Origin: Acidobacteriota bacterium
Lineage (GTDB): Bacteria; Acidobacteriota; Vicinamibacteria; Vicinamibacterales; 2-12-FULL-66-21
Reading direction: 5' to 3'
Assembly: GCA_046732715.1 (NCBI GenBank)
Contig: JBKPNQ010000004.1
Coordinates: 4,150-68,149, forward strand
DNA length: 64,000 nt
The first letter of the stretch is position 1; each line of letters starts with the position of its first letter. The notes beneath the pieces were generated by a model. It saw nothing but the letters and a program-made list of their open reading frames with translations, was not told the origin of the DNA and ran no database searches. The position numbers and the translations under genes were made by a program. Below are positions 55,146 to 63,942 of the stretch, piece by piece.

Positions 55146-55465
55146 CGTGTGGCCCCGTCGAGGATGTCTATTGGCCAGCTAGTGCAAGCCACGGTCCACA
55201 ACGACAAGGGACAAGAGACACTGACCACGGAAAGAAACGGTTGTGTTCGGGCCGAAAGGTTTGACCAGTGTTACGCCTACGTTACTAAGTTGCGCGAGCT
55301 CAGCGACGGAAGTATCGGTGCGCGGTGGCCTACGACACGCCTTCCGCCCCGTCCGGTCGAAAGGGGCGACGGCGAGACTTTGATGGGGGATCGGTCAGGG
55401 ACTGGTTCAGCTGTGGCGTCGCAGGCTGACTCCGGTTCCTCGCCGATCCGATCGAGGCACATCTG

Positions 55466-55837
55466 ATGAAGTTTGCGAAGATCGTTTTCACAGGCGCTGG
55501 CATCTGGGGCCTGTTGGTGCTCTCGCCTCTGTACTTCCTGTTCGACGCTGTCGGCCAGAAATACCCGCCACCGGTTACGCACCCTGACTTTTATTACGGG
55601 TTCGTCGGCTTGGGGCTCGCGTGGCAGTTGGCGTTCCTTGTCATCGGCAGGGATCCTGTCCGCTTCCGTCCGATGATGATTCCAGCTGTCTGCGAAAAGG
55701 CCTTCTACGTGATCAGCCTGTTGACGCTGTACATGACAGGAAGCATCGAGGCCGGACAACTTGCTGTCGGCGGCCCTGACTTGCTTCTTGGCTGTCTATT
55801 CGTGTCGGCGTTTGTGAAGACCCCTCGACTCGCCTGA
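55466..55837 (+). CDS. Small membrane hypothetical protein
   Basis: GAGG RBS; about four hydrophobic segments; HPDFYYGF, DPVRFRPMM..EK. Confidence 0.75.
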   Translation: MKFAKIVFTGAGIWGLLVLSPLYFLFDAVGQKYPPPVTHPDFYYGFVGLGLAWQLAFLVIGRDPVRFRPMMIPAVCEKAFYVISLLTLYMTGSIEAGQLAVGGPDLLLGCLFVSAFVKTPRLA

Positions 55838-55930: not shown

Positions 55931-56635
55931 TCATCGCGTCGATGTGCTGTCGAGACAGATCAGTTGCTGCTGCTGGTCGTGCGTCAATCGGAGATGGCCA
56001 GGCTTCGGGAAGGCCAGATCGTTGACGCTGAGAGTTCCGCGCAGCAATCCGACGGTCGAGTGATTCGTCGTGTCGAGGAGGTAGTGCGCGAGCTCATGGG
56101 CGAGCGCTACACCCAGCATCTGTACAAGGATCAGGTCGCGCTCCACACGCGATCGTGAGAGGAACGGCCGGCCTTCGATCTCTGCTCCTGTGGCCAGCGC
56201 CTCGGCGTTGGCCGGCCACAGGTGAATGTATGGCGTCGCGTGGCCACCCGAGAACAGCGTATCGCCGAGGATCGTGGGTCGAAAGCCGGTCGCGGTGGTC
56301 GTCGTGCCACGTGAAATGACCACGGCGATTGCGTCAGTGCCCGTGCTCGGTTCGATGCAGACGCCATACGGGTTCCAAATCCGGTTTGCCATCTCGAGGA
56401 TCCGCTTGATTCCGGTATCGTCGATATCGGGCTGATTATAGATTTTCAGCCCGAGCACGCGGGACTGGAGTGCTTCGGCTGCGCACTCGGAGCAGCCCTG
56501 ACAGCGTGTCGATACTCGCTCGCGATCGGGTGAAGCTGCGAGCGCTGGTGCCGCAAGGCAGCCAAGTAGCGGAATCATCAGCACGCAGGCTCCGAGCCGC
56601 CGCGGCTGACGCGTCAATCGCGTCGTCATTGCCAT
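55931..56635 (-). CDS. Secreted HExxH (zincin-like) hypothetical protein
   Basis: AAGGA RBS, signal-like segment, LGVALAHELAHYLL..H..GLL. Confidence 0.7.
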   Translation of the reverse strand: MAMTTRLTRQPRRLGACVLMIPLLGCLAAPALAASPDRERVSTRCQGCSECAAEALQSRVLGLKIYNQPDIDDTGIKRILEMANRIWNPYGVCIEPSTGTDAIAVVISRGTTTTATGFRPTILGDTLFSGGHATPYIHLWPANAEALATGAEIEGRPFLSRSRVERDLILVQMLGVALAHELAHYLLDTTNHSTVGLLRGTLSVNDLAFPKPGHLRLTHDQQQQLICLDSTSTR

Positions 56636-56678
56636 GTAAATCCTTCGGCGTTGGAGAAGCGTCAACGCCCACACTAAG

Positions 56679-56706
56679 GTAGGGCTCGATTACGCGAGTT
56701 CTTTCA
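56679..56706 (-). promoter_or_regulatory. Shared motif copy 3: TGAAAGA-N16-CCTAC (candidate ECF promoter)
   Basis: Minus strand tgaaaga actcgcgtaatcgagc cctac, 44 nt before ATG 56635. Confidence 0.55.
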
Positions 56707-56758
56707 GGAACCGAACGTCCACTGAGTGGCGCGACCGCGCGACGAATTGCGGCAGGGA

Positions 56759-57510
56759 TCAGGAGATCCGTACGGGGAATCGGAGAGGGCTGTGTGCGCT
56801 CGAGTCACGACCGAATCGAGAGGACGCCCCATATCTCCCGGCGACACGATTGCGTCCTGCGCGCTTCGCTCGATACAACGCGGCGTCGGCTTCCTCGATC
56901 CACTCGAGCGCCGACTGCTCTTGCGCGAGTTCGACGACGCCGATGCTGATCGAGACGTGCGCTCCAGGCACCAGCCGCGCGTCCTGCACCAAGCGGCGGA
57001 GATCCTCGGCAACGAACAGCGCATCGCTGAAGCGTGTTCCGGACAACAGCAGGACGAATTCTTCGCCGCCTGCGCGGAACAGCGCGTCGACCTTGCGCAC
57101 CCGTTGTCCCGCCAGCGCGACCAGCGATTTGAGAACGCGGTCTCCCTCGGCGTGCCCGAGTGCATCGTTGATGTCTTTGAATCGATCGATGTCGAACATC
57201 AGAACCGTGGCGCGTTCACCAGATCGGCGTCGCCGTTCGACCGCCGCCGCCAGCGTCGTGTGCATCTGCCGCCGGTTGTACGCGCCGGTCAGCGGATCGG
57301 TGATCACCTGCTCTTCGAGCATGTGAACCCGATGCTGAAGCGCCGCCACTCTGACTACCGCGACTGCCGCGACCGCAAGAACGACCAGATTGACAGTCAC
57401 TGCAGCGGCGCTCAGAAAGTCCGCGACGTCCCGGCATGGGGCGTACGAACGGTGCTGATTGAGGCGAGAGCAAGCCGAGTCCAGAAGCGGCGCAAAGCCA
57501 CTCGATCCAT
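56759..57510 (-). CDS. GGDEF diguanylate cyclase with N-terminal TM helix; 5' end apparently frameshifted
   Basis: TDPLTGAYNRR, DIDRFKDINDALGHAEGD, FRAGGEEF, SISIG, ADAALYRAKRAGRNR; the GGAGG-ATG at 57510 is out of frame with the domain. Confidence 0.8.
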
Positions 57511-57527
57511 CCGTACCTCCCAGCGAA

Positions 57528-57554
57528 ATAGGCGACGGTGAACGAAATCTTTCA
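57528..57554 (-). promoter_or_regulatory. Shared motif copy 2: TGAAAGA-N15-CCTAT
   Basis: Minus strand tgaaaga tttcgttcaccgtcg cctat, overlapping the CHAT stop codon, upstream of the GGDEF RBS. Confidence 0.5.
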
Positions 57555-60500
57555 GCGGGAGGTGCGGAGACGAGTCCAGTCGCCGGATTGGATGAAGCCG
57601 CCCCAGTAGTAGGGGTGGCGCAGGCCTGGACGTCGCAGGATCGACAGTTTCGCCTGACGAAGAGCGTCGCCTCGACCGGCGCCCGATCGCAGCCGCGCGT
57701 AGTAGGCCACCATCGTGTCGCGCGCCACGGCATCGCTCACAGGCCACAGGCTCATGACGAGCGTCTCGGCTCCGGCCAGCATGAACGCGCGCCGTAGCCC
57801 GTAGACGCCCTCGCCGTTGTGGATGTCCCCGACGCCGGTGTCGCAGGCCGAAAGCGTGACCAGACTGGTTCCGCGGAGGTTCAGGCCGGCAGCTTCGAGC
57901 GCCGTCAGGATGCCATCGCCATCGCCCTGTGCGGTTCCGGCGAAGTTGGCGCCGGCGAGCGCCAGTCCCGATCGCAGCAGCGGATTCTGAGCGATGACCG
58001 ACTCCGATCCGCCGCTGGCGTCGTCTTCCAGGAAGAATCCATGCGACGCGATGTGCAGGATGTTCGGCGCCGCGATCCGTGTGAGCGTGGACTTTGTCGC
58101 ACGTCGTCCGGTCAGCAAAGTCGCGTCCGGGAAGAGCGCCTTGATGGCACGGCCTTCCAGCGCGCTGCCGAGCAGCGGGGCGAAGTAGAGGCCGGACAAG
58201 TCGGCGCCGACGGTGACGGAGCGGGAGCCGCCGGTCGCCGCTGATTGTCCGCGTCGCGCGACGGTGGCCGACGGTTCGCCGAACAGCGGGTCGGCGACGA
58301 TCACCGGCTTGCCAGGCGCGGCCGGCGCGCTCTGCATGCGGAGCAGATCGCGGCCGCTGGTGAGATAGGTCATGGCGTATCGCTCGATCAGGTAGCGGCC
58401 ATGTTCGTCCACCAGGGCCTCGAAGGGCACCAGGTTCAAGCCGCCGTCTGGCGAGATCAACAGGCGGGTGACGCCCGCCAGGGAGGCGCGCAGCGGCCGT
58501 ACGATTCTCTCGTCGAGCGCGCGGCCTCGTGCGTTCACGTCGGTGTCACCCGGGTCGCGAAGCGCTGTGCGCAGGCCGACAATCAGTGCGTCGATGTCTT
58601 CGACCGCGCCGAGATCAAACCCGATGGGTGGACCGTGCTTTGAGACGACGTAGGCGGCGTAGTGAGGTGGTCCGTAGGCTTCTTCATTCCGCTCGGCCTC
58701 CGGATCGAAGGGACGGAACACGGCGAATTCAATCAACACAGCGTCGCGTGGAATCGCCGCCTGTACGGTTTCCAGCGTGACCGGACACATATCAGCCCTG
58801 AACTCCGCGCTCCGCTCACTGAGCGTCGCTTCCAGTTGCTCCTTGCGCGCCTCAATCTCGGCGACCGACTCGCGCACGTCCGGCGCCGATTGTCGTGCTC
58901 CGCCCAGGGCGATGCGGGCGAGGCTGGCATCGGTCTCTTTCAACTCGTCCATCAGCATCTGATCGTCCGGGGCGGCCACGCGCTGTCGCGCCGCAGCGAA
59001 GAGATCCGTCATCGCGTCCTGCACACGGCCCTTCCGCTGAAGCAGAACCAGCGCAGCCAACGACGCAGCGTCCGGGTTGTCGGGCGCCTGCCTGAGATGG
59101 AGTGAGATCGTGCGGTCGGTGCGGTCCGCTTCGTTCCTGACGAACGCCAGTTTCTGCCGCTCCGAGCCGGTCGCGAGGTAGAGGTTCAGCTGCATCTCGA
59201 GAATCGCGTCAGCCCGCCGCTGGAACTTCAGCGCATTTTCGATGTCGCCGGCGCCGGCGTAGGTGCGCGCGATGTTGCCGACGACGAGGAGCGTTTCGCG
59301 ACCGTACGGTCCGACGCTCTTTTCCCACATGCTCAAGGCGCGGAAATGGATCTCGAGCGCTTGTTGATCGTTTCCGGTTGCGCGATAGATGTTCGCGAGG
59401 TTCGTCAGCACCCCGGCCAGGCCCGGATGATCCGGTCCGAGCAGCCGTTCCCGAATCGACAAGGCGCGGCTGTAATAGCTGACCGCCTCGTCGTAGTTCT
59501 TGCGCTCGCGCGCCATGATGCCGAGATTCTGCAAGGCTGTCGCGACGAAGAGGCTGTTGCTGCCAATCAGCGACTCACCGATCGCTAGCGACTTCCGGAA
59601 CAGCGACTCGGCGCCCGCGTAGTCGTTCCTCGCGCGGAGGACGTCGGCGAGATTGTTCTCGAGCGTCGCCTCCAGAAGCGTACCCGTCTGCCCGGTACGC
59701 TCGACCACCGCCAACGCGTCACGGTCGACGTGCTCGGCCTGCCGCAGGTCTCCGGCGCTCTGGCGCAGGTTTCCAAGCGTGACCAGCGACAGCAGATACC
59801 ACGGGTGCGCGGAGCCAAGAGAGCGCTCGAGGAGCGGCAGCACGTCGCGGATAGCCGCCTCCGCCTTCAGACGCTGACCGGCGCGCTCATCGAGCAGCGC
59901 CAGTCGCGATCGTGTCATCGCCGCATACGGGTGCGCCGCGCCCCACGCGCTGTCGAACGTCGCCAGGGCTCGCTCGTACAAAGACCTTGCTCGGTCGTTG
60001 TCTTGCGCCTCCAGCGCGTTGCCGGCAAGGTCGAATCGCAACAGCGCGAGCGACGTGGCGTCGATTCCCGGCACCGACTCCGCGACCGAAAGCGACTGCT
60101 CCAGGAGCGTCCGCGCCTCGGTGAAGTGTCCACTCCGCTCGAGTTGTTGTCCGAGCGAGCGCAAGATGAGCGATTGCTGCAGGCGGCGGTCTGATTCCGA
60201 CGCCACTCGCGCGGCCCCCATTCGGATGACGAAATCTCCCGGGTCTACCGCTCCAGTGGCCGGCCTGACGGTGACGGTGTAGGTCCCCGCCGCCGACGCG
60301 ACAATCTCGACGTGTTCTTCGCCGTCGCGCCGGATTTCGTCCTGAAAGTCACAAATCGGCTTTCCTCCTGTGTCCGACACCGAGACCACGAGGTCGATCC
60401 CTTTCTGCTCGACAGCGATGGCGACGGCCGTGGCCGCGGTGAGCGCGAGTTGAAACCGCTGCTGCTCGCCCGGCGCGATGTGTCGTTGGATAGGGATTTC

Positions 60501-60605
60501 CGGGATGAGCCTCGAGACCTCCGGCTCCTGGCTGCTGAGGTTCGAGAAGAGCAGAGCGGTCGCGGTCCAGGTGGTGGCGGTATTGAAAAGAAAGGCGCCG
60601 CGCAT
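57552..60605 (-). CDS. TPR-CHAT (caspase HetF-like) protease with N-terminal PPC-like domain
   Basis: Signal-like N-terminus; VEQKGIDLVV; kinesin-light-chain-like TPRs; ISPDGGLNLVPFEAL, ILHIASHG (His), LSACDTG (Cys), SLWPVSD, HPYYWGGF. Confidence 0.93.
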   Translation of the reverse strand: MRGAFLFNTATTWTATALLFSNLSSQEPEVSRLIPEIPIQRHIAPGEQQRFQLALTAATAVAIAVEQKGIDLVVSVSDTGGKPICDFQDEIRRDGEEHVEIVASAAGTYTVTVRPATGAVDPGDFVIRMGAARVASESDRRLQQSLILRSLGQQLERSGHFTEARTLLEQSLSVAESVPGIDATSLALLRFDLAGNALEAQDNDRARSLYERALATFDSAWGAAHPYAAMTRSRLALLDERAGQRLKAEAAIRDVLPLLERSLGSAHPWYLLSLVTLGNLRQSAGDLRQAEHVDRDALAVVERTGQTGTLLEATLENNLADVLRARNDYAGAESLFRKSLAIGESLIGSNSLFVATALQNLGIMARERKNYDEAVSYYSRALSIRERLLGPDHPGLAGVLTNLANIYRATGNDQQALEIHFRALSMWEKSVGPYGRETLLVVGNIARTYAGAGDIENALKFQRRADAILEMQLNLYLATGSERQKLAFVRNEADRTDRTISLHLRQAPDNPDAASLAALVLLQRKGRVQDAMTDLFAAARQRVAAPDDQMLMDELKETDASLARIALGGARQSAPDVRESVAEIEARKEQLEATLSERSAEFRADMCPVTLETVQAAIPRDAVLIEFAVFRPFDPEAERNEEAYGPPHYAAYVVSKHGPPIGFDLGAVEDIDALIVGLRTALRDPGDTDVNARGRALDERIVRPLRASLAGVTRLLISPDGGLNLVPFEALVDEHGRYLIERYAMTYLTSGRDLLRMQSAPAAPGKPVIVADPLFGEPSATVARRGQSAATGGSRSVTVGADLSGLYFAPLLGSALEGRAIKALFPDATLLTGRRATKSTLTRIAAPNILHIASHGFFLEDDASGGSESVIAQNPLLRSGLALAGANFAGTAQGDGDGILTALEAAGLNLRGTSLVTLSACDTGVGDIHNGEGVYGLRRAFMLAGAETLVMSLWPVSDAVARDTMVAYYARLRSGAGRGDALRQAKLSILRRPGLRHPYYWGGFIQSGDWTRLRTSR

Positions 60606-61510
60606 TACTGCCGCGCCACCTCGAATGCGTAGGTGGCAACGAAGTCAGGCGGCGCGCTTGCGTGCACGAAAAGGTCGAGTGCGTAGTGCTGCGCCTTCAG
60701 CAGCGCGGCGGGCAGCCCGATTGATACCACTGGCGCGAGGCGCTCTCGATTCGGGGCCACTGGCGCGCTGCGCCAGATGATGCGATTGGTCGCGGGATCC
60801 TTGAGCGCAACGTCGTAGGAGGCGGATCCAACCGCTTCGACCTCGAGGTCCAACGGCACACTGCGCGATCCCGGCGCCACCGAGATGATCGGCGTTGGTC
60901 CGACGCCGCGCGTCTGCGGCCGGAGCACGAGCGCGATCGCGGAGAGTGGTCTGACGGCCCGCGCATCCGCGAGGGCTTGGGTAGCGGTCGCAGCCGCCTT
61001 CCGCTGTTGGTCGAGTTCAGCCGACACGGTATTGGCGCGTTCGGTCGCGGCGGTGATCTGTCCCCTGGCGATATCCAGGTCACGCCGAAGAGAGACATGC
61101 TGAAGGACGAGCACGCTGACGCTTACAAACAACGCAGCCGCGACCGCCTGCGCCCACGGAAATATGCGGCGGCGTCTGGCCGGCCGTGGAACGATTGCGG
61201 GCTGCGGCACGGCAGACAGACGCGATTCGGGACGATCGATCTTCGCCAGGAAGCCTGTCGCGAATGCTGCCTTTCTGCGACGGCGCGGCGACGCGAGGTA
61301 GAACGACTCGAACCGCCGCCGCGTCTCGCCGCTGAGTGTGCCGGCCGCGTAGGCGTCCACCAAATCGTCTTCGACAAGCCGCAATCGCGTCGACAGCTCG
61401 TCGTCGATGATGCTCAGCTCTTCGAGACGTTCGGTATCCTCTTCGGGCAGGCAGCCAAGGACATAGCTCACCAGTTGGTCGTCGCTAAACGGTTCTCGGG
61501 GCTGAGACAT
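60605..61510 (-). CDS. Putative membrane-anchored anti-sigma factor
   Basis: LVSYVLG.L.EE..ERLEE..EDDLVDAY..G.L; one TM helix, coiled coil, C-terminal beta domain; TAATG coupling to CHAT; no HxxxCxxC. Confidence 0.7.
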   Translation of the reverse strand: MSQPREPFSDDQLVSYVLGCLPEEDTERLEELSIIDDELSTRLRLVEDDLVDAYAAGTLSGETRRRFESFYLASPRRRRKAAFATGFLAKIDRPESRLSAVPQPAIVPRPARRRRIFPWAQAVAAALFVSVSVLVLQHVSLRRDLDIARGQITAATERANTVSAELDQQRKAAATATQALADARAVRPLSAIALVLRPQTRGVGPTPIISVAPGSRSVPLDLEVEAVGSASYDVALKDPATNRIIWRSAPVAPNRERLAPVVSIGLPAALLKAQHYALDLFVHASAPPDFVATYAFEVARQ

Positions 61511-61539
61511 AGGCTCCAGATCGAAAGGCCCTTCTTAGG

Positions 61540-61567
61540 ATAGGAATTCCGCCACCAGAATCTTTCA
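61540..61567 (-). promoter_or_regulatory. Shared motif copy 1: TGAAAGA-N16-CCTAT
   Basis: Minus strand tgaaaga ttctggtggcggaatt cctat, overlapping the sigma stop, 30 nt before the anti-sigma ATG. Confidence 0.55.
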
Positions 61568-62173
61568 GAGCCGTTTTCGGCAGGCGCCGACGCAGCGTTC
61601 CAGGTTCGCCCGCAGGCGCCAGGCTCGAATACCCAGCGCGTTCATGCTAATCCCGAGCTGCCGGGCGAGTTCCCTGCGTCGATCGATTCGCTGTCGTTTC
61701 GCGTCGCGGTAGTACTCGACGATCAGGTGCTTGTCCTCTGGCTTCAGGATGTTCAGGCAACGCCCCAGGCAGTCGAGCGACTGGTCCACACCGTCGTCGG
61801 CGCCCGACAGGTCAGCTCGCGCATGGTGGACGGCGGCACGGGTTTCCTCGAATGGAACGTCGCGACGCGTCCGCCGGATGTCCTCGAGGAGCACAAATCG
61901 TGCGACGACGTAGCAGTAGCGCGCCGGGGGCGTGACCTTGATGCGGCCGGACTCCTCGAGCGTCCTGCTCACGCGATCGAATGTCTCATCGGCCAACACG
62001 TCCGGTGCCGGGCGGTTGCGTCGATCAAAGTAGGCGACCAGGCGGCGTCGCATTTCCAGGTAGCGCTCGCCCTGCGAGTCGGACCCGTCATCGAGCCAGC
62101 GAAGGAGCCGTGTGAAAGCGGTTCCGGAGATCCCCGAATCGTGTCGATCAACTTCCTGCGTCAGAACAGTCAT
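61565..62173 (-). CDS. Atypical ECF-type RNA polymerase sigma factor
   Basis: FTRLLRWLD..GERY..RRRLVAYF, LADETFDRV, CLGRCL..L, RRELARQLGISMNALGIRAWRLRANLERC. Confidence 0.8.
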   Translation of the reverse strand: MTVLTQEVDRHDSGISGTAFTRLLRWLDDGSDSQGERYLEMRRRLVAYFDRRNRPAPDVLADETFDRVSRTLEESGRIKVTPPARYCYVVARFVLLEDIRRTRRDVPFEETRAAVHHARADLSGADDGVDQSLDCLGRCLNILKPEDKHLIVEYYRDAKRQRIDRRRELARQLGISMNALGIRAWRLRANLERCVGACRKRL

Positions 62174-62416
62174 GATGATTTCTTCGTTCGCGTATTTACC
62201 ATCCGCCGATCGGTCGGATGAAGCAACTCCATGCAAGACACGTGACCACGATGGACGATGAGAAAGATCTGCAGACGATCAATATTTGATGACGTGCAGC
62301 TGTCCGAAGGTAAGACCTCGCCCCGGCCGGCTCGCCCCGATCGCTGCGAGCGACAAAAACCGGCGCCTCGTTACGCACGCCGTAAATGCCGACTGGTTCG
62401 AAGGTCCTGATCGTCC

Positions 62417-62998
62417 CTACACTGCCACCCCTTCGTCCTTTGGTTCCTCTACGCTTCGCATGTGAGGGGTCGCGCGTTTCAATTCGTCGCCGAGCAGGCC
62501 ACGCAGCGCTTCACGGGCTCGCGACAGGCCCGACATCACCGTGCCGATCGGAATGTCCATGACATCCGCCAGCTCACGATAGGAAAGTCCCTCAATCTCG
62601 CGGAGGACGATCAGTTCGCGAAATCGATCGGGCAGGCTGCCGATCGCCCGCTCGATCCGTGCCGCAGTATCGGTCCGCAGCATCAGCGTCTCCGGACTAT
62701 TGGACGACTGCGCGCTGCTGTGACGTTCCTCATCGAACGGATCCGTCAGCGTCCGGATCGGTTTCCATTCGCCGTGGCAGGTGTTTCGGACAATCCGAAG
62801 AAACCAGGCGCGGCCGTTTCCGCCGCCGAAGGTCCGAAAGTAGCGGAACGCGCGCAGCGCCGCTTCCTGCACCACGTCTTCTGCATCGTCTTCGTTCCGC
62901 ACCAGCCAGCGCGCCAGCCGGTAGGCCGCGTCAAGGTGAGGCAGGACGACATCGTCGAAGGTCGCTCCCTCGTCGAGTGACCGTGTGACTTCATTCAC
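62417..62998 (-). CDS. ECF RNA polymerase sigma factor (sigma24 type)
   Basis: PHLDAAYRLARWL, DAEDVVQEA, RAWFLRIVRN, LREIEGLSY.E.A..IPIGTVMSGLSRAR; GTGA overlap with upstream gene. Confidence 0.93.
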   Translation of the reverse strand: MNEVTRSLDEGATFDDVVLPHLDAAYRLARWLVRNEDDAEDVVQEAALRAFRYFRTFGGGNGRAWFLRIVRNTCHGEWKPIRTLTDPFDEERHSSAQSSNSPETLMLRTDTAARIERAIGSLPDRFRELIVLREIEGLSYRELADVMDIPIGTVMSGLSRAREALRGLLGDELKRATPHMRSVEEPKDEGVAV

Positions 62999-63942
62999 GA
63001 TGTGACCTCGCTGGCGCCGACGATCTGTTGGATGCCCTCTTCGAGCGTCGGATAACTGAATTGAAAGCCGGTTCCCCGAAGCCGGATGTTTGAGAACACC
63101 ATGTCGCCCTCGAGGCAATCGACGGTCGTGCGGCGACCGAGAATCTGCGCCGCGGCGGCGGGGAGCCGCCGCACCTTCAGCGGCCGCTCAGCCATGCGCG
63201 CGAACGTTTCCGCGAACTCATGAACCTGAATCGGATCGCTGTTGACGAGAAAATAGCGGCTTCCAGGTTCGCCCCGTTCGGCCAGGTGGACGAGCGCCCG
63301 GGCGCAGTCGTGAACGTGAATGGGCGAGATCCAATTCCGGCTCGCGCCAAACTGCAGGACTCGACGGCCTGACATGATGGGCTCCAGGATTCGCTCTCGA
63401 AACCAGGCACCATTGCCGTAGACCCACCCGGGAAGCGCGGTGACGACCGGTAGCCCGGCGACGACATACCCGTCCAGTCGATCGAGAGCCGGACTGAGGC
63501 AGCGTCCCCAGCCACCTGGCCGAAGCGGTGAGTCTTCCGTGATCGGACGTGCACCGGTGATTCCGTAGCAGCTCGAATCGGCCACGTACACCACCCGGCG
63601 CGTCGTCCCGTTGGCGACGGCATCCAGCAGGTTGGCATCCATCGCGACGCGTTCACTCATCAGCGCCGCCGCGTGTCGGCGTCCGCGCGCTTCATGCATC
63701 AGCGGCTGCGGTGGGATATGGAACACCCACTCAGTACCTGCCTCGTCCTGCCACTGACCCGGCTTCGCTAGCTCTCCGACGACGGCCGTGGCTCCTGCCC
63801 GGCGAAGTCGATGCGCTGACTCCACCGAAGGTACCAGGCCAATCACCTGATGGCCGCCCGCGACCAGGACCTTCACGAGCTCCCTGCCGACAAACCCGAC
63901 GGCGTTCGTAACGAAAGTGGTGACTCCTTCGCCGACTGTCAT
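62995..63942 (-). CDS. NAD-dependent epimerase/dehydratase family protein (degenerate motifs)
   Basis: FVTNAVGFVG (variant of TGxxGxxG), PITED, PGWVYG, PIHVHD.A, GFQFSYPT.EEG. Confidence 0.8.
   Translation of the reverse strand: MTVGEGVTTFVTNAVGFVGRELVKVLVAGGHQVIGLVPSVESAHRLRRAGATAVVGELAKPGQWQDEAGTEWVFHIPPQPLMHEARGRRHAAALMSERVAMDANLLDAVANGTTRRVVYVADSSCYGITGARPITEDSPLRPGGWGRCLSPALDRLDGYVVAGLPVVTALPGWVYGNGAWFRERILEPIMSGRRVLQFGASRNWISPIHVHDCARALVHLAERGEPGSRYFLVNSDPIQVHEFAETFARMAERPLKVRRLPAAAAQILGRRTTVDCLEGDMVFSNIRLRGTGFQFSYPTLEEGIQQIVGASEVTS

Follow-up and report, generated by a model that had tools for sequence, protein, structure and literature searches.

A sigma/anti-sigma/TPR-CHAT gene module of Acidobacteriota appears to be a split counterpart of the DdvS/DdvA system of Myxococcus xanthus

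In Myxococcus xanthus, DdvS, a sigma factor of the extracytoplasmic function (ECF) type, is partnered by the transmembrane anti-sigma factor DdvA, which itself carries a periplasmic part made of tetratricopeptide repeats (TPRs) and a CHAT domain (PMC11506125). According to the accessible part of that description, a truncated form of DdvA is degraded by RseP, the CHAT domain was proposed by the authors as the site-1 protease, and DdvA-like proteins were reported only in Myxococcota and one Comamonas. In the present study, a gene cluster of related composition was analysed in a stretch of 64,000 nt from a soil bacterium of the Acidobacteriota (GCA_046732715.1, contig JBKPNQ010000004.1, positions 4,150-68,149 of the forward strand), which is referred to as the window. 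Its minus strand carries, between positions 55931 and 62173, five co-oriented genes in the order sigma, anti-sigma, TPR-CHAT, GGDEF and HExxH (Table 1). As judged from comparative sequence analysis, the first three of them appear to be a split, Acidobacteriota-wide counterpart of DdvS/DdvA that is not linked to defence genes. A literature search found no paper joining the CHAT domain, a sigma factor and Acidobacteria, and the M. xanthus study was the only one to join TPR-CHAT, an anti-sigma factor and the periplasm.

As far as DdvS and DdvA are described in the cited text, both systems combine an ECF-type sigma factor, a single-pass anti-sigma factor with a cytoplasmic helical domain and an extracytoplasmic TPR-CHAT part with a His-Cys dyad, the export of which is predicted for the window protein. 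In both, CHAT is proposed to act as the site-1 protease ahead of RseP, and some species possess several paralogous pairs per genome. Unlike DdvA, the anti-sigma factor and the TPR-CHAT protein of the window are encoded by separate genes, the one-chain form being found in relatives (loci L059, L060 and L070). The window anti-sigma factor has an immunoglobulin-like (Ig-like) ectodomain of its own and lacks the CHCC zinc site, and the TPR-CHAT protein has its own signal peptide and N-terminal domain. The window sigma protein, unlike DdvS, is too divergent to be matched by Pfam. The predicted regulon is also of another kind: its members are a peptidase, a GGDEF cyclase and proteins of the membrane or outer membrane, and not the genes of CRISPR or of the cyclic oligonucleotide-based antiphage signalling system (CBASS), and the host phylum here is Acidobacteriota.

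The classical scheme of regulated intramembrane proteolysis is that of RseA, which is shielded by RseB and is cut by the PDZ serine protease DegS and then by RseP. The window module resembles this scheme in having a single-pass anti-sigma factor, a proposed site-1 cut in its ectodomain and an RseP homolog in the genome, an M50 protease found with E 4e-68. It is distinguished by the proposed site-1 enzyme, which would be a caspase-like cysteine protease of clan CD that has a TPR sensor and whose gene shares an operon with that of the substrate. That a site-1 cut in the ectodomain licenses RseP is the general rule stated, in the part consulted, for anti-sigma factors of this type (PMC11506125).

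The first-pass annotation of the window had named the type III-E CRISPR system as precedent, in which the TPR-CHAT protease Csx29 cleaves Csx30, a protein that binds a sigma factor (PMC10028731). This craspase is a more remote analogue than DdvS/DdvA, which that annotation did not cite. In the available description, the likeness lies in a TPR-CHAT protease linked with the freeing of a sigma-type regulator whose inhibitor is cut, which is a proposal for the window; Csx29 is cytoplasmic, RNA-guided and bound to Cas7-11, whereas the window protease is predicted to be exported and the inhibitor is a membrane anti-sigma factor. The same annotation's view that the circuit is independent of CRISPR held up: PADLOC gave only generic matches in the window (a TPR model on the CHAT protein and the palm domain of a Cas10 model, E 1.4e-5, on the GGDEF protein), and no CRISPR repeat array was found in positions 40000-64000.

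Genes of the group ECF54, which is confined to Actinobacteria, are regularly located near TPR-fused CHAT proteins, with subtilases alongside and, in the description as far as it is accessible, with no putative anti-sigma factor; their predicted promoter is GTATCAG / CTCC (PMC7826278). The window module shares with them an ECF near a TPR-CHAT gene and the recurrence of CarboxypepD_reg domains, which are located here in TonB-dependent receptor targets. It is set apart from ECF54, by the description of that group, in having an anti-sigma factor, no subtilase seen, a different promoter motif and an acidobacterial host. FecI/FecR signalling, as outlined in the accessible text, also relies on a membrane anti-sigma factor and periplasmic proteolysis (PMC11637429, PMC5411451). 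The latter is a proposal here, and TonB-dependent receptors are among the predicted targets in several related loci as well. Unlike in FecI/FecR, there is no FecR domain, the receptors have a CarboxypepD_reg N-terminus instead of a signalling domain, and a dedicated CHAT protease would take the place of Prc. Searches of solved structures by sequence with the CHAT protein, the sigma profile, the fused protein of L059 and the anti-sigma profile returned only TPR proteins or chance matches and neither DdvA, DdvS, Csx29 nor any ECF sigma factor, the presence of DdvS and DdvA chains in the searched set being unverified.

To follow the module in other genomes, 80 loci with sigma homologs were collected by a scan with the sigma profile (one genome per species), and their open reading frames (ORFs) were searched with the window proteins and hidden Markov models (HMMs). 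The loci belong nearly all to Acidobacteriota (Vicinamibacterales, Pyrinomonadaceae, Blastocatellia, Thermoanaerobaculia and Terriglobia), a few being labelled Myxococcota, Betaproteobacteria or Heliomicrobium. The anti-sigma N-domain adjoins sigma in 68 of the 80 loci, and a CHAT-domain gene lies within 5 kb in 57, the same 57 being obtained with the HMM. In 34 of these, CHAT is downstream on the same strand, which is also the layout of the window, in 12 it is upstream and in five convergent; three more have no anti-sigma match in the phmmer search and three are fused. The arrangement is far beyond chance; the 6.63 Mb genome of the window contains only three CHAT genes and one member of the sigma family. 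On the evidence of these neighbourhoods, sigma, anti-sigma and CHAT are a conserved module, as the first-pass annotation had supposed for the three genes.

CHAT was not found in the remaining 23 loci, 15 of which end too close to the contig border to be judged and eight of which have full flanks; the CHAT-less loci are scattered on the sigma tree, with seven changes for seven rows. Found near sigma in the full-flank loci without CHAT are, among others, a TonB-dependent receptor, a TPR-bearing Ser/Thr kinase together with another ECF gene, a partner-switching set, TIR and AAA_35 proteins and a papain-like peptidase. Several CHAT-less sigma homologs have surroundings of their own. The one in L055 is located behind TIR and AAA_35 genes and is possibly fused to AAA_35, that in L061 follows a papain-family peptidase and is accompanied by two short anti-sigma-like ORFs, those in L027, L029 and L030 are adjacent to a Ser/Thr kinase with TPRs and a Sigma70_ECF gene, and that in L045 is located 5' of a STAS/HATPase/SpoIIE partner-switching set.

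Among 301 sampled Acidobacteriota genomes, 39 contain the sigma family (E <=1e-15), with up to seven copies per genome; one genome of the window's own genus has no member. The distribution is patchy, with paralogue expansion, some genomes (G251, G034, G064, G050 and G089) having six or seven copies. The search of the sigma profile against 1.84 billion cluster representatives yielded 2290 at E <=1e-30.

The fused loci bear on the relation of the two partner proteins. In L059, L060 and L070, all from Pyrinomonadaceae, the sigma gene is directly followed by a gene for a protein of about 1185 aa, in which the anti-sigma N-domain, a single membrane helix and TPRs are followed by a CHAT domain at the C-terminus (E 1e-55 to 1e-63). 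These forms make up one group nested among split forms on the sigma tree, and by their sequences they extend the reported range of the DdvA architecture to Acidobacteriota. The anti-sigma domain must be cytoplasmic, and therefore the CHAT part of the fusions is extracytoplasmic. Together with the signal peptides detected in 43 of 47 CHAT orthologues, this topology predicts that CHAT and the C-terminal domain of the anti-sigma factor share the extracytoplasmic compartment, so that the shared location assumed in the first-pass annotation is supported. Of the 56 loci with both the anti-sigma N-domain and CHAT, the Ig-like domain occurs together with the CHAT N-domain in 41, the former alone in nine and the latter alone in three; the three that have neither are exactly the fused ones. 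It may be that the Ig-like domain and the CHAT N-domain are a docking pair made redundant by the covalent link, a suggestion drawn from related loci that are not independent of each other.

In the TPR-CHAT protein of the window, a weak signal peptide (residues 1-26) is followed by a beta-rich N-domain (about 27-140), TPRs (about 141-560), a linker region (561-690) and the CHAT domain (693-1009). The latter matches PF12770 with 262 bits where 24 is the cut-off (E 8e-78), and many TPR families are also matched, TPR_12 with E 6e-56. The dyad is formed by His855 (HIASHG) and Cys921 (LSACDTG); in related CHAT domains the His is kept in 44 of 45 and the Cys in 45 of 45, the single miss being a fragmented ORF. 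A hydrophobic stretch of 10 residues with hydropathy of at least 2.0 within 40 residues 5' of the N-domain is present in those 43 of 47 orthologues, typically followed by an A-x-A or AQ site, while in the control sets it was found in two of 76 sigma and none of 56 anti-sigma N-termini. The signal-like N-terminus reported in the first-pass annotation is present in the window protein but weakly hydrophobic, its best value being 1.21 against a median of 2.55 in the 47 orthologues. The other features noted there, that is, the five-gene co-oriented layout, the TAATG coupling, the intact His/Cys dyad and the single membrane helix of the anti-sigma factor, read in the sequence as they had been described. 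Two tandem TPR-CHAT genes accompany one sigma/anti-sigma pair in L035 (10837-13959 and 14012-17122), L051 and L058.

The anti-sigma factor was modelled by AlphaFold2 (AF2) with a predicted local distance difference test score (pLDDT) of 86.5. Its N-terminal helices (10-91) have pLDDT >90 and are followed by a basic disordered linker (97-115) and by one long helix (119-186), the first third of which is the membrane span (about 119-141). The helix starts at residue 119 after the sequence RPARRRR and continues as a coiled coil to residue 186; then come a poorly ordered linker (187-193) and an eight-stranded Ig-like beta-sandwich (194-300). The orthologues likewise show one hydrophobic helix there, which points to one membrane helix with the N-terminus inside, the topology of class I membrane anti-sigma factors. 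The Ig-like domain is similar to 6oe6_B (VIA Z 9.0), a generic match, and fold searches with the whole model gave only generic Ig-like and coiled-coil matches that crowded out the N-terminal domain. The Pfam family zf-HC2 is matched by the window protein below the cut-off (E 3.2e-4) and partially by 21 of 56 homologs, at best with E 2.3e-5.

Arg201, located in the exposed loop RPQTRGVGP (197-207), is invariant in 56 anti-sigma sequences down to 23% identity. Metacaspases, which belong to clan CD, cut after Arg. Separase, another enzyme of this clan, is described in the accessible text as doing the same (PMC11506125). Either this loop with Arg201 or the linker 187-193 is hypothesised here, from the alignment and the model, to be the candidate cleavage region. 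The prediction of a complex between CHAT residues 27-700, a fragment without the catalytic domain, and anti-sigma residues 142-301 gave a score of 0.00 and a mark of 0.32, and counts neither way.

In the sigma protein, a disordered linker (107-124) connects a sigma2 domain (about 16-108) to a sigma4 domain (about 121-202), and there is neither region 1.1 nor region 3. The AF2 model, built with 76 homologs, has a pLDDT of 78.7 and two helical domains, and the top 15 solved matches in Foldseek were all ECF sigma factors. In the VIA comparison, residues 25-108 matched region 2 of E. coli sigmaE (4lup_A, Z 8.1, root-mean-square deviation (rmsd) 2.9, 79 residues aligned) and SigW (5wuq_A, Z 7.9), and residues 121-202 matched SigL (3hug_C, Z 8.5, rmsd 3.2, 77 residues aligned). 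At the level of sequence models the protein is elusive. It has no Pfam match and is below the curated NCBIfam cut-offs (TIGR02989, E 1.6e-8, 34.6 bits against 124.55; TIGR02937, 16.1 against 42.9), and the family profile found no sigma factor by sequence among solved structures. Sigma70_r4_2 was matched in 29 of the 76 homologs, with E 4.2e-7 at best, and Sigma70_r2 in two. By the fold of its model, the window sigma is of ECF type, group 4 of the sigma-70 family, though it fails the curated sequence models, and the family may for that reason have been overlooked by model-based classifications. Two CxxxC pairs, Cys135/Cys139 and Cys194/Cys198, flank the sigma4 domain; the first pair is kept in at least 90% of the 76 homologs and the second is invariant in the 22 closest. 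They may form a metal or redox site within sigma itself.

Three genes of the cluster, those for the anti-sigma factor, the GGDEF protein and the HExxH protein, are preceded by a bipartite promoter-like motif, GAAAGA-N15/16-CCTA (copies P1, P2 and P3), and a scan with a degenerate expression revealed a fourth, looser copy upstream of a gene for a small membrane protein. GAAAGA-N14-17-CCTA has exactly three matches in the window, all intergenic, on the gene strand and in this cluster, against 0.10 expected, a comparison that is circular because the pattern was read from those sites. Independent evidence comes from the comparison with relatives. The spacer between sigma and anti-sigma contains GA(A/C)AG(A/G)TTT, a fixed spacing and (G/A)TCCTATC in 30 of 33 related loci, with the variant GTCTTATC in Pyrinomonadaceae and relatives. 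P2 is kept after the CHAT stop codon in seven loci (L005 and L009-L014), and P3 in L005 and L006. In 2.42 Mb of loci, the degenerate motif has 63 matches against 10 for the backwards control; 24 are located before anti-sigma genes, seven before GGDEF genes and five before HExxH genes, including divergent HExxH genes in L020 and L024. The other 27 are mostly right after the CHAT gene or face away from the sigma gene. Among the genes behind them are those for TonB-dependent receptors with a CarboxypepD_reg N-terminus (L006, L018 and L026), a solute-binding protein, a DinB-like protein, unknown exported proteins and homologs of the small membrane protein (L015, L017 and L032). Relatives keep the motif in matching places, so that the genes that carry it look like one regulon, and the simplest reading of these alignments is that the motif is a promoter read by the window sigma, which would give a compact regulon. 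It is this conserved bipartite motif that speaks for a putative role of the protein in promoter-specific initiation with the RNA polymerase core.

Outside the cluster, the genome of the window contains ten exact matches, five of which are located 23-91 nt 5' of ORFs with exported-looking N-termini (C60:1727, C131:43888, C153:29609, C211:12313 and C224:5108, listed as L096, L097, L099, L100 and L101). One of these ORFs is prepilin-like, three are lipoprotein-like and one is similar to the starts of CarboxypepD_reg/TonB receptors. They could be further regulon members or chance matches.

The region upstream of the sigma gene itself contains no copy of the regulon motif in positions 62174-62416, and none of its inverted repeats matches the motif. 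Three inverted repeats conserved in close relatives are found there, TTACG-N5-CGTAA at 62371-62385, which is duplicated in L012, ATCAA-ATA-TTGAT at 62278-62290 and CACGTGTCTTGCATG at 62230-62244. Therefore, sigma seems to be expressed separately, with the anti-sigma factor and the protease under feedback. As for other signals 5' of the sigma gene, a sister group of nine loci (L017, L019-L021, L025, L028, L032, L043 and L046) has GG-N10-GC with TTGCA, resembling a sigma-54 promoter. The window has GG-N11-GC, one base off, and a gene for a sigma-54 activator is located nearby in L008.

The GGDEF protein matches PF00990 (E 1.1e-39) and TIGR00254 (E 8.2e-46). A single membrane helix lies at its N-terminus, a sensor domain is lacking, and the active site GGEEF is accompanied by an inhibition site RKVD (RxxD) five residues upstream. 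The protein is predicted from these features to be a diguanylate cyclase, the only obvious control of which is its expression level. A frameshift in the gene was considered and rejected, the orthologues likewise beginning at the membrane helix and having about 213 aa. Directly after P2, a frame of 32 codons (57412-57510, minus strand) that is well provided with a ribosome-binding site opens with the ATG at 57510 and ends just 5' of the GTG of the GGDEF gene in a different reading frame. In L009-L013 the equivalent ATG is the start of the GGDEF protein proper, and the frame may be an upstream ORF or a remnant.

The HExxH protein has no Pfam or NCBIfam match. It is exported-looking and possibly lipidated (LLGC), signal- or lipoprotein-like N-termini being found in its family, and HExxHxxxxxxxH (His180, Glu181, His184 and His192) is invariant in 16 of 16 homologs. 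The metzincin motif is HExxHxxGxxH, and the spacing in the window protein differs from it. In the Atlas the nearest named clusters are Peptidase_M10, with scores of 0.86-0.92, which is a lead only. By its conserved motif, the protein is a putative zinc peptidase. The first-pass annotation had seen the GGDEF and HExxH proteins as outputs of the circuit. The motif they share with the anti-sigma operon fits this role, but both are confined to the subclade of the window; at other loci TonB-dependent receptors and other exported proteins are behind the motif.

The mechanism to which we give roughly even chances is proteolysis of the anti-sigma ectodomain in trans by the exported TPR-CHAT protein, followed by RseP, the release of sigma and transcription from the motif. 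In the resting state, the anti-sigma factor would use its N-terminal helical domain to keep the divergent two-domain ECF-type sigma at the membrane, and its coiled coil and Ig-like domain would project into the periplasm. TPR-CHAT would be exported separately and would meet the ectodomain, probably by means of its own beta-rich N-domain and TPRs. An extracytoplasmic signal sensed through the TPR part would activate the His855/Cys921 site, CHAT would clip the ectodomain as a site-1 protease in trans, and the RseP-type site-2 protease of the genome would remove the remainder of the anti-sigma factor. The freed sigma would then transcribe four target units from GAAAGA-N15/16-CCTA promoters, namely, the anti-sigma/CHAT operon (feedback), the membrane diguanylate cyclase (cyclic di-GMP output set by expression level), the HExxH zinc peptidase and the small membrane protein. 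Computation has given us the make-up of the genes, the folds, a trio that is conserved, a common compartment, the existence of fused variants and a motif kept in relatives; from them we infer that sigma is bound by the anti-sigma factor, that the latter is cut, which sigma reads the motif and what kind of signal is sensed. The envelope circuit suggested by the first-pass annotation is thus backed comparatively in its module, compartment and outputs, the proteolytic step and the sigma-promoter link being proposals as before.

A number of observations weigh against this mechanism. Eight loci with full flanks (L008, L024, L036, L045, L061, L030, L042 and L055) have sigma and no CHAT, so that the sigma/anti-sigma pair can exist without an adjacent CHAT gene. 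The N-terminus of the window CHAT protein, with its hydropathy of 1.21, is the least hydrophobic of the family, which makes the export of this protein less certain than that of its relatives. The HxxxCxxC ligands of the zinc-binding anti-sigma (ZAS) type are absent from residues 1-95 of the anti-sigma factor, and its N-domain has no match to a solved anti-sigma domain, only the partial zf-HC2 matches. The exact motif has 13 matches genome-wide against 35 for the reversed control, that is, no enrichment; being defined from window sites and not enriched, it derives its weight from its position and its conservation in relatives. A canonical ECF gene directly upstream encodes an alternative sigma factor that could read the motif. 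The precedent is itself unproven, since dyad mutants of DdvA had no phenotype in the absence of a known signal, according to the accessible part of the report (PMC11506125).

Three other explanations were weighed. CHAT might be a docking partner or co-sensor that shields the Ig-like domain, in the way that RseB protects RseA and TonB-dependent transducers protect their anti-sigma factors, its protease being aimed at some other periplasmic or foreign protein; binding or cutting that protein would free the anti-sigma factor for a generic Prc- or DegS-like protease and RseP. That 41 of 53 split loci have the Ig-like domain together with the CHAT N-domain, and that both are absent from exactly the three fusions, fits a docking pair, TPRs are protein-binding modules, another substrate would explain the conserved dyad equally well, and the protection of anti-sigma factors by partners is established in the part of the literature consulted (PMC11637429). 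We regard this explanation as rather unlikely, given that the neighbourhood contains no other conserved dedicated site-1 protease gene and that in the fusions, as in DdvA (PMC11506125), a single chain carries both the active site and the linker to be cut. Less probable still is that CHAT is mere cargo, an exported protease co-transcribed as a regulon output for scavenging or antagonism, with no role in the release of sigma. Besides the anti-sigma/CHAT operon, the motif would drive genes for HExxH, TonB-dependent receptors and a solute-binding protein, which are exported too, the eight full-flank loci manage without an adjacent CHAT, and its position and orientation vary between downstream, upstream and convergent. 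Cargo genes, however, vary by subclade, the GGDEF and HExxH outputs being an example, while over the family as a whole CHAT remains beside the pair (57 of 80 loci), and cargo would be hard to reconcile with the three anti-sigma-TPR-CHAT fusions.

It is very improbable that the sigma protein is some other helix-turn-helix regulator and the motif an operator or RNA element read by something else. Such a view could appeal to the missing Pfam sigma match, to the failure of the family profile to find a solved sigma factor by sequence and to the two Sigma70_r2 matches among 76 homologs. It has to contend with the match of each domain to ECF structures, sigma2 with Z 8.1 and sigma4 with Z 8.5 (rmsd about 3 Å, 77-79 residues), the exclusively ECF matches at the top of the Foldseek results and Sigma70_r4_2 in 29 of 76 homologs, and also with a partner of anti-sigma-like architecture and a motif with the two blocks and fixed spacing of a promoter. 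If the reading of cleavage in trans is combined with the family-wide data, a fuller picture can be drawn, in which the anti-sigma factor of a large unclassified ECF-like family (2290 clusters, up to seven copies per genome) would be the substrate, in trans, of a caspase-like protease dedicated to it in the periplasm. Docking would be the task of the Ig-like domain and the CHAT N-domain, a pair replaced by a covalent link in DdvA-like fusions, and Arg201 would be the P1 residue of the cut (not to be confused with motif copy P1). All these parts together make a tentative, somewhat doubtful proposition.

The positions of the genes and motif copies are given in Table 1. The base composition was uniform over the region in a window scan, and a scan for sigma-70 promoters and terminators found neither between the genes of the cluster. 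The canonical ECF gene has no anti-sigma gene of its own alongside; it adjoins the module in L005 and L006, is located downstream in L008 and is not found with the module in more distant loci. Homologs of the small membrane protein were found in six related loci (L006, L015, L017, L019, L021 and L032).

Table 1. Features of the sigma/anti-sigma/TPR-CHAT cluster and its surroundings (positions in the window)
Feature	Positions	Strand	Remarks
Gene for small hydrophobic protein	55466-55837	+	123 aa; no Pfam match, no known family
Fourth, looser motif copy, GAAAGG-N16-CCTAC	55254-55280	+	186 nt upstream of the small membrane protein gene; degenerate regex scan
HExxH gene	55931-56635	-	234 aa
P3, GAAAGA-N16-CCTA	56680-56705	-	upstream of HExxH gene
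GGDEF gene	56759-57400	-	GTG start, 213 aa; length and N-terminal membrane helix as in L005 orthologue
P2, GAAAGA-N15-CCTA	57529-57553	-	starts within CHAT stop codon, upstream of GGDEF gene
TPR-CHAT gene	57552-60605	-	1017 aa; ATG overlaps anti-sigma stop codon as TAATG
Anti-sigma-like gene	60605-61510	-	301 aa; GGAG 4 nt 5' of ATG
P1, GAAAGA-N16-CCTA	61541-61566	-	starts within sigma stop codon, ends 30 nt 5' of anti-sigma ATG
Sigma-like gene	61565-62173	-	ATG start, 202 aa; homologs (201-203 aa) share the start MTVLTQE
Region upstream of sigma gene	62174-62416	-	conserved inverted repeats (alignment of 27 upstream regions)
Canonical ECF sigma gene	62417-63118	-	Sigma70_r2, Sigma70_r4_2, NF009185 (E 2.6e-57)

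In the DdvA system, as it is presented in the cited text, the protease role of CHAT has remained hypothetical, given that no signal is known and that one chain carries both enzyme and substrate, and the system's reported occurrence is nearly confined to Myxococcota. In the window, the enzyme and its presumed substrate are separate proteins, so that the mechanism can be tested by simple co-expression with a Cys-to-Ala control. If the proposed cleavage takes place, the split system would be a natural 'two-piece' version, in which the unproven site-1 role of TPR-CHAT anti-sigma factors becomes directly testable. The analysis has further provided a candidate promoter and, with it, a predicted regulon of small size, one member of which is a diguanylate cyclase. 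The association of sigma, anti-sigma and TPR-CHAT extends across Acidobacteriota, and the sigma family is present in thousands of metagenomic clusters and reaches widely among soil bacteria. The module is not tied to defence islands, and it seems that, if the proposed mechanism is true, a caspase-like switch would be connected in these bacteria with cyclic di-GMP and envelope remodelling instead of phage defence.

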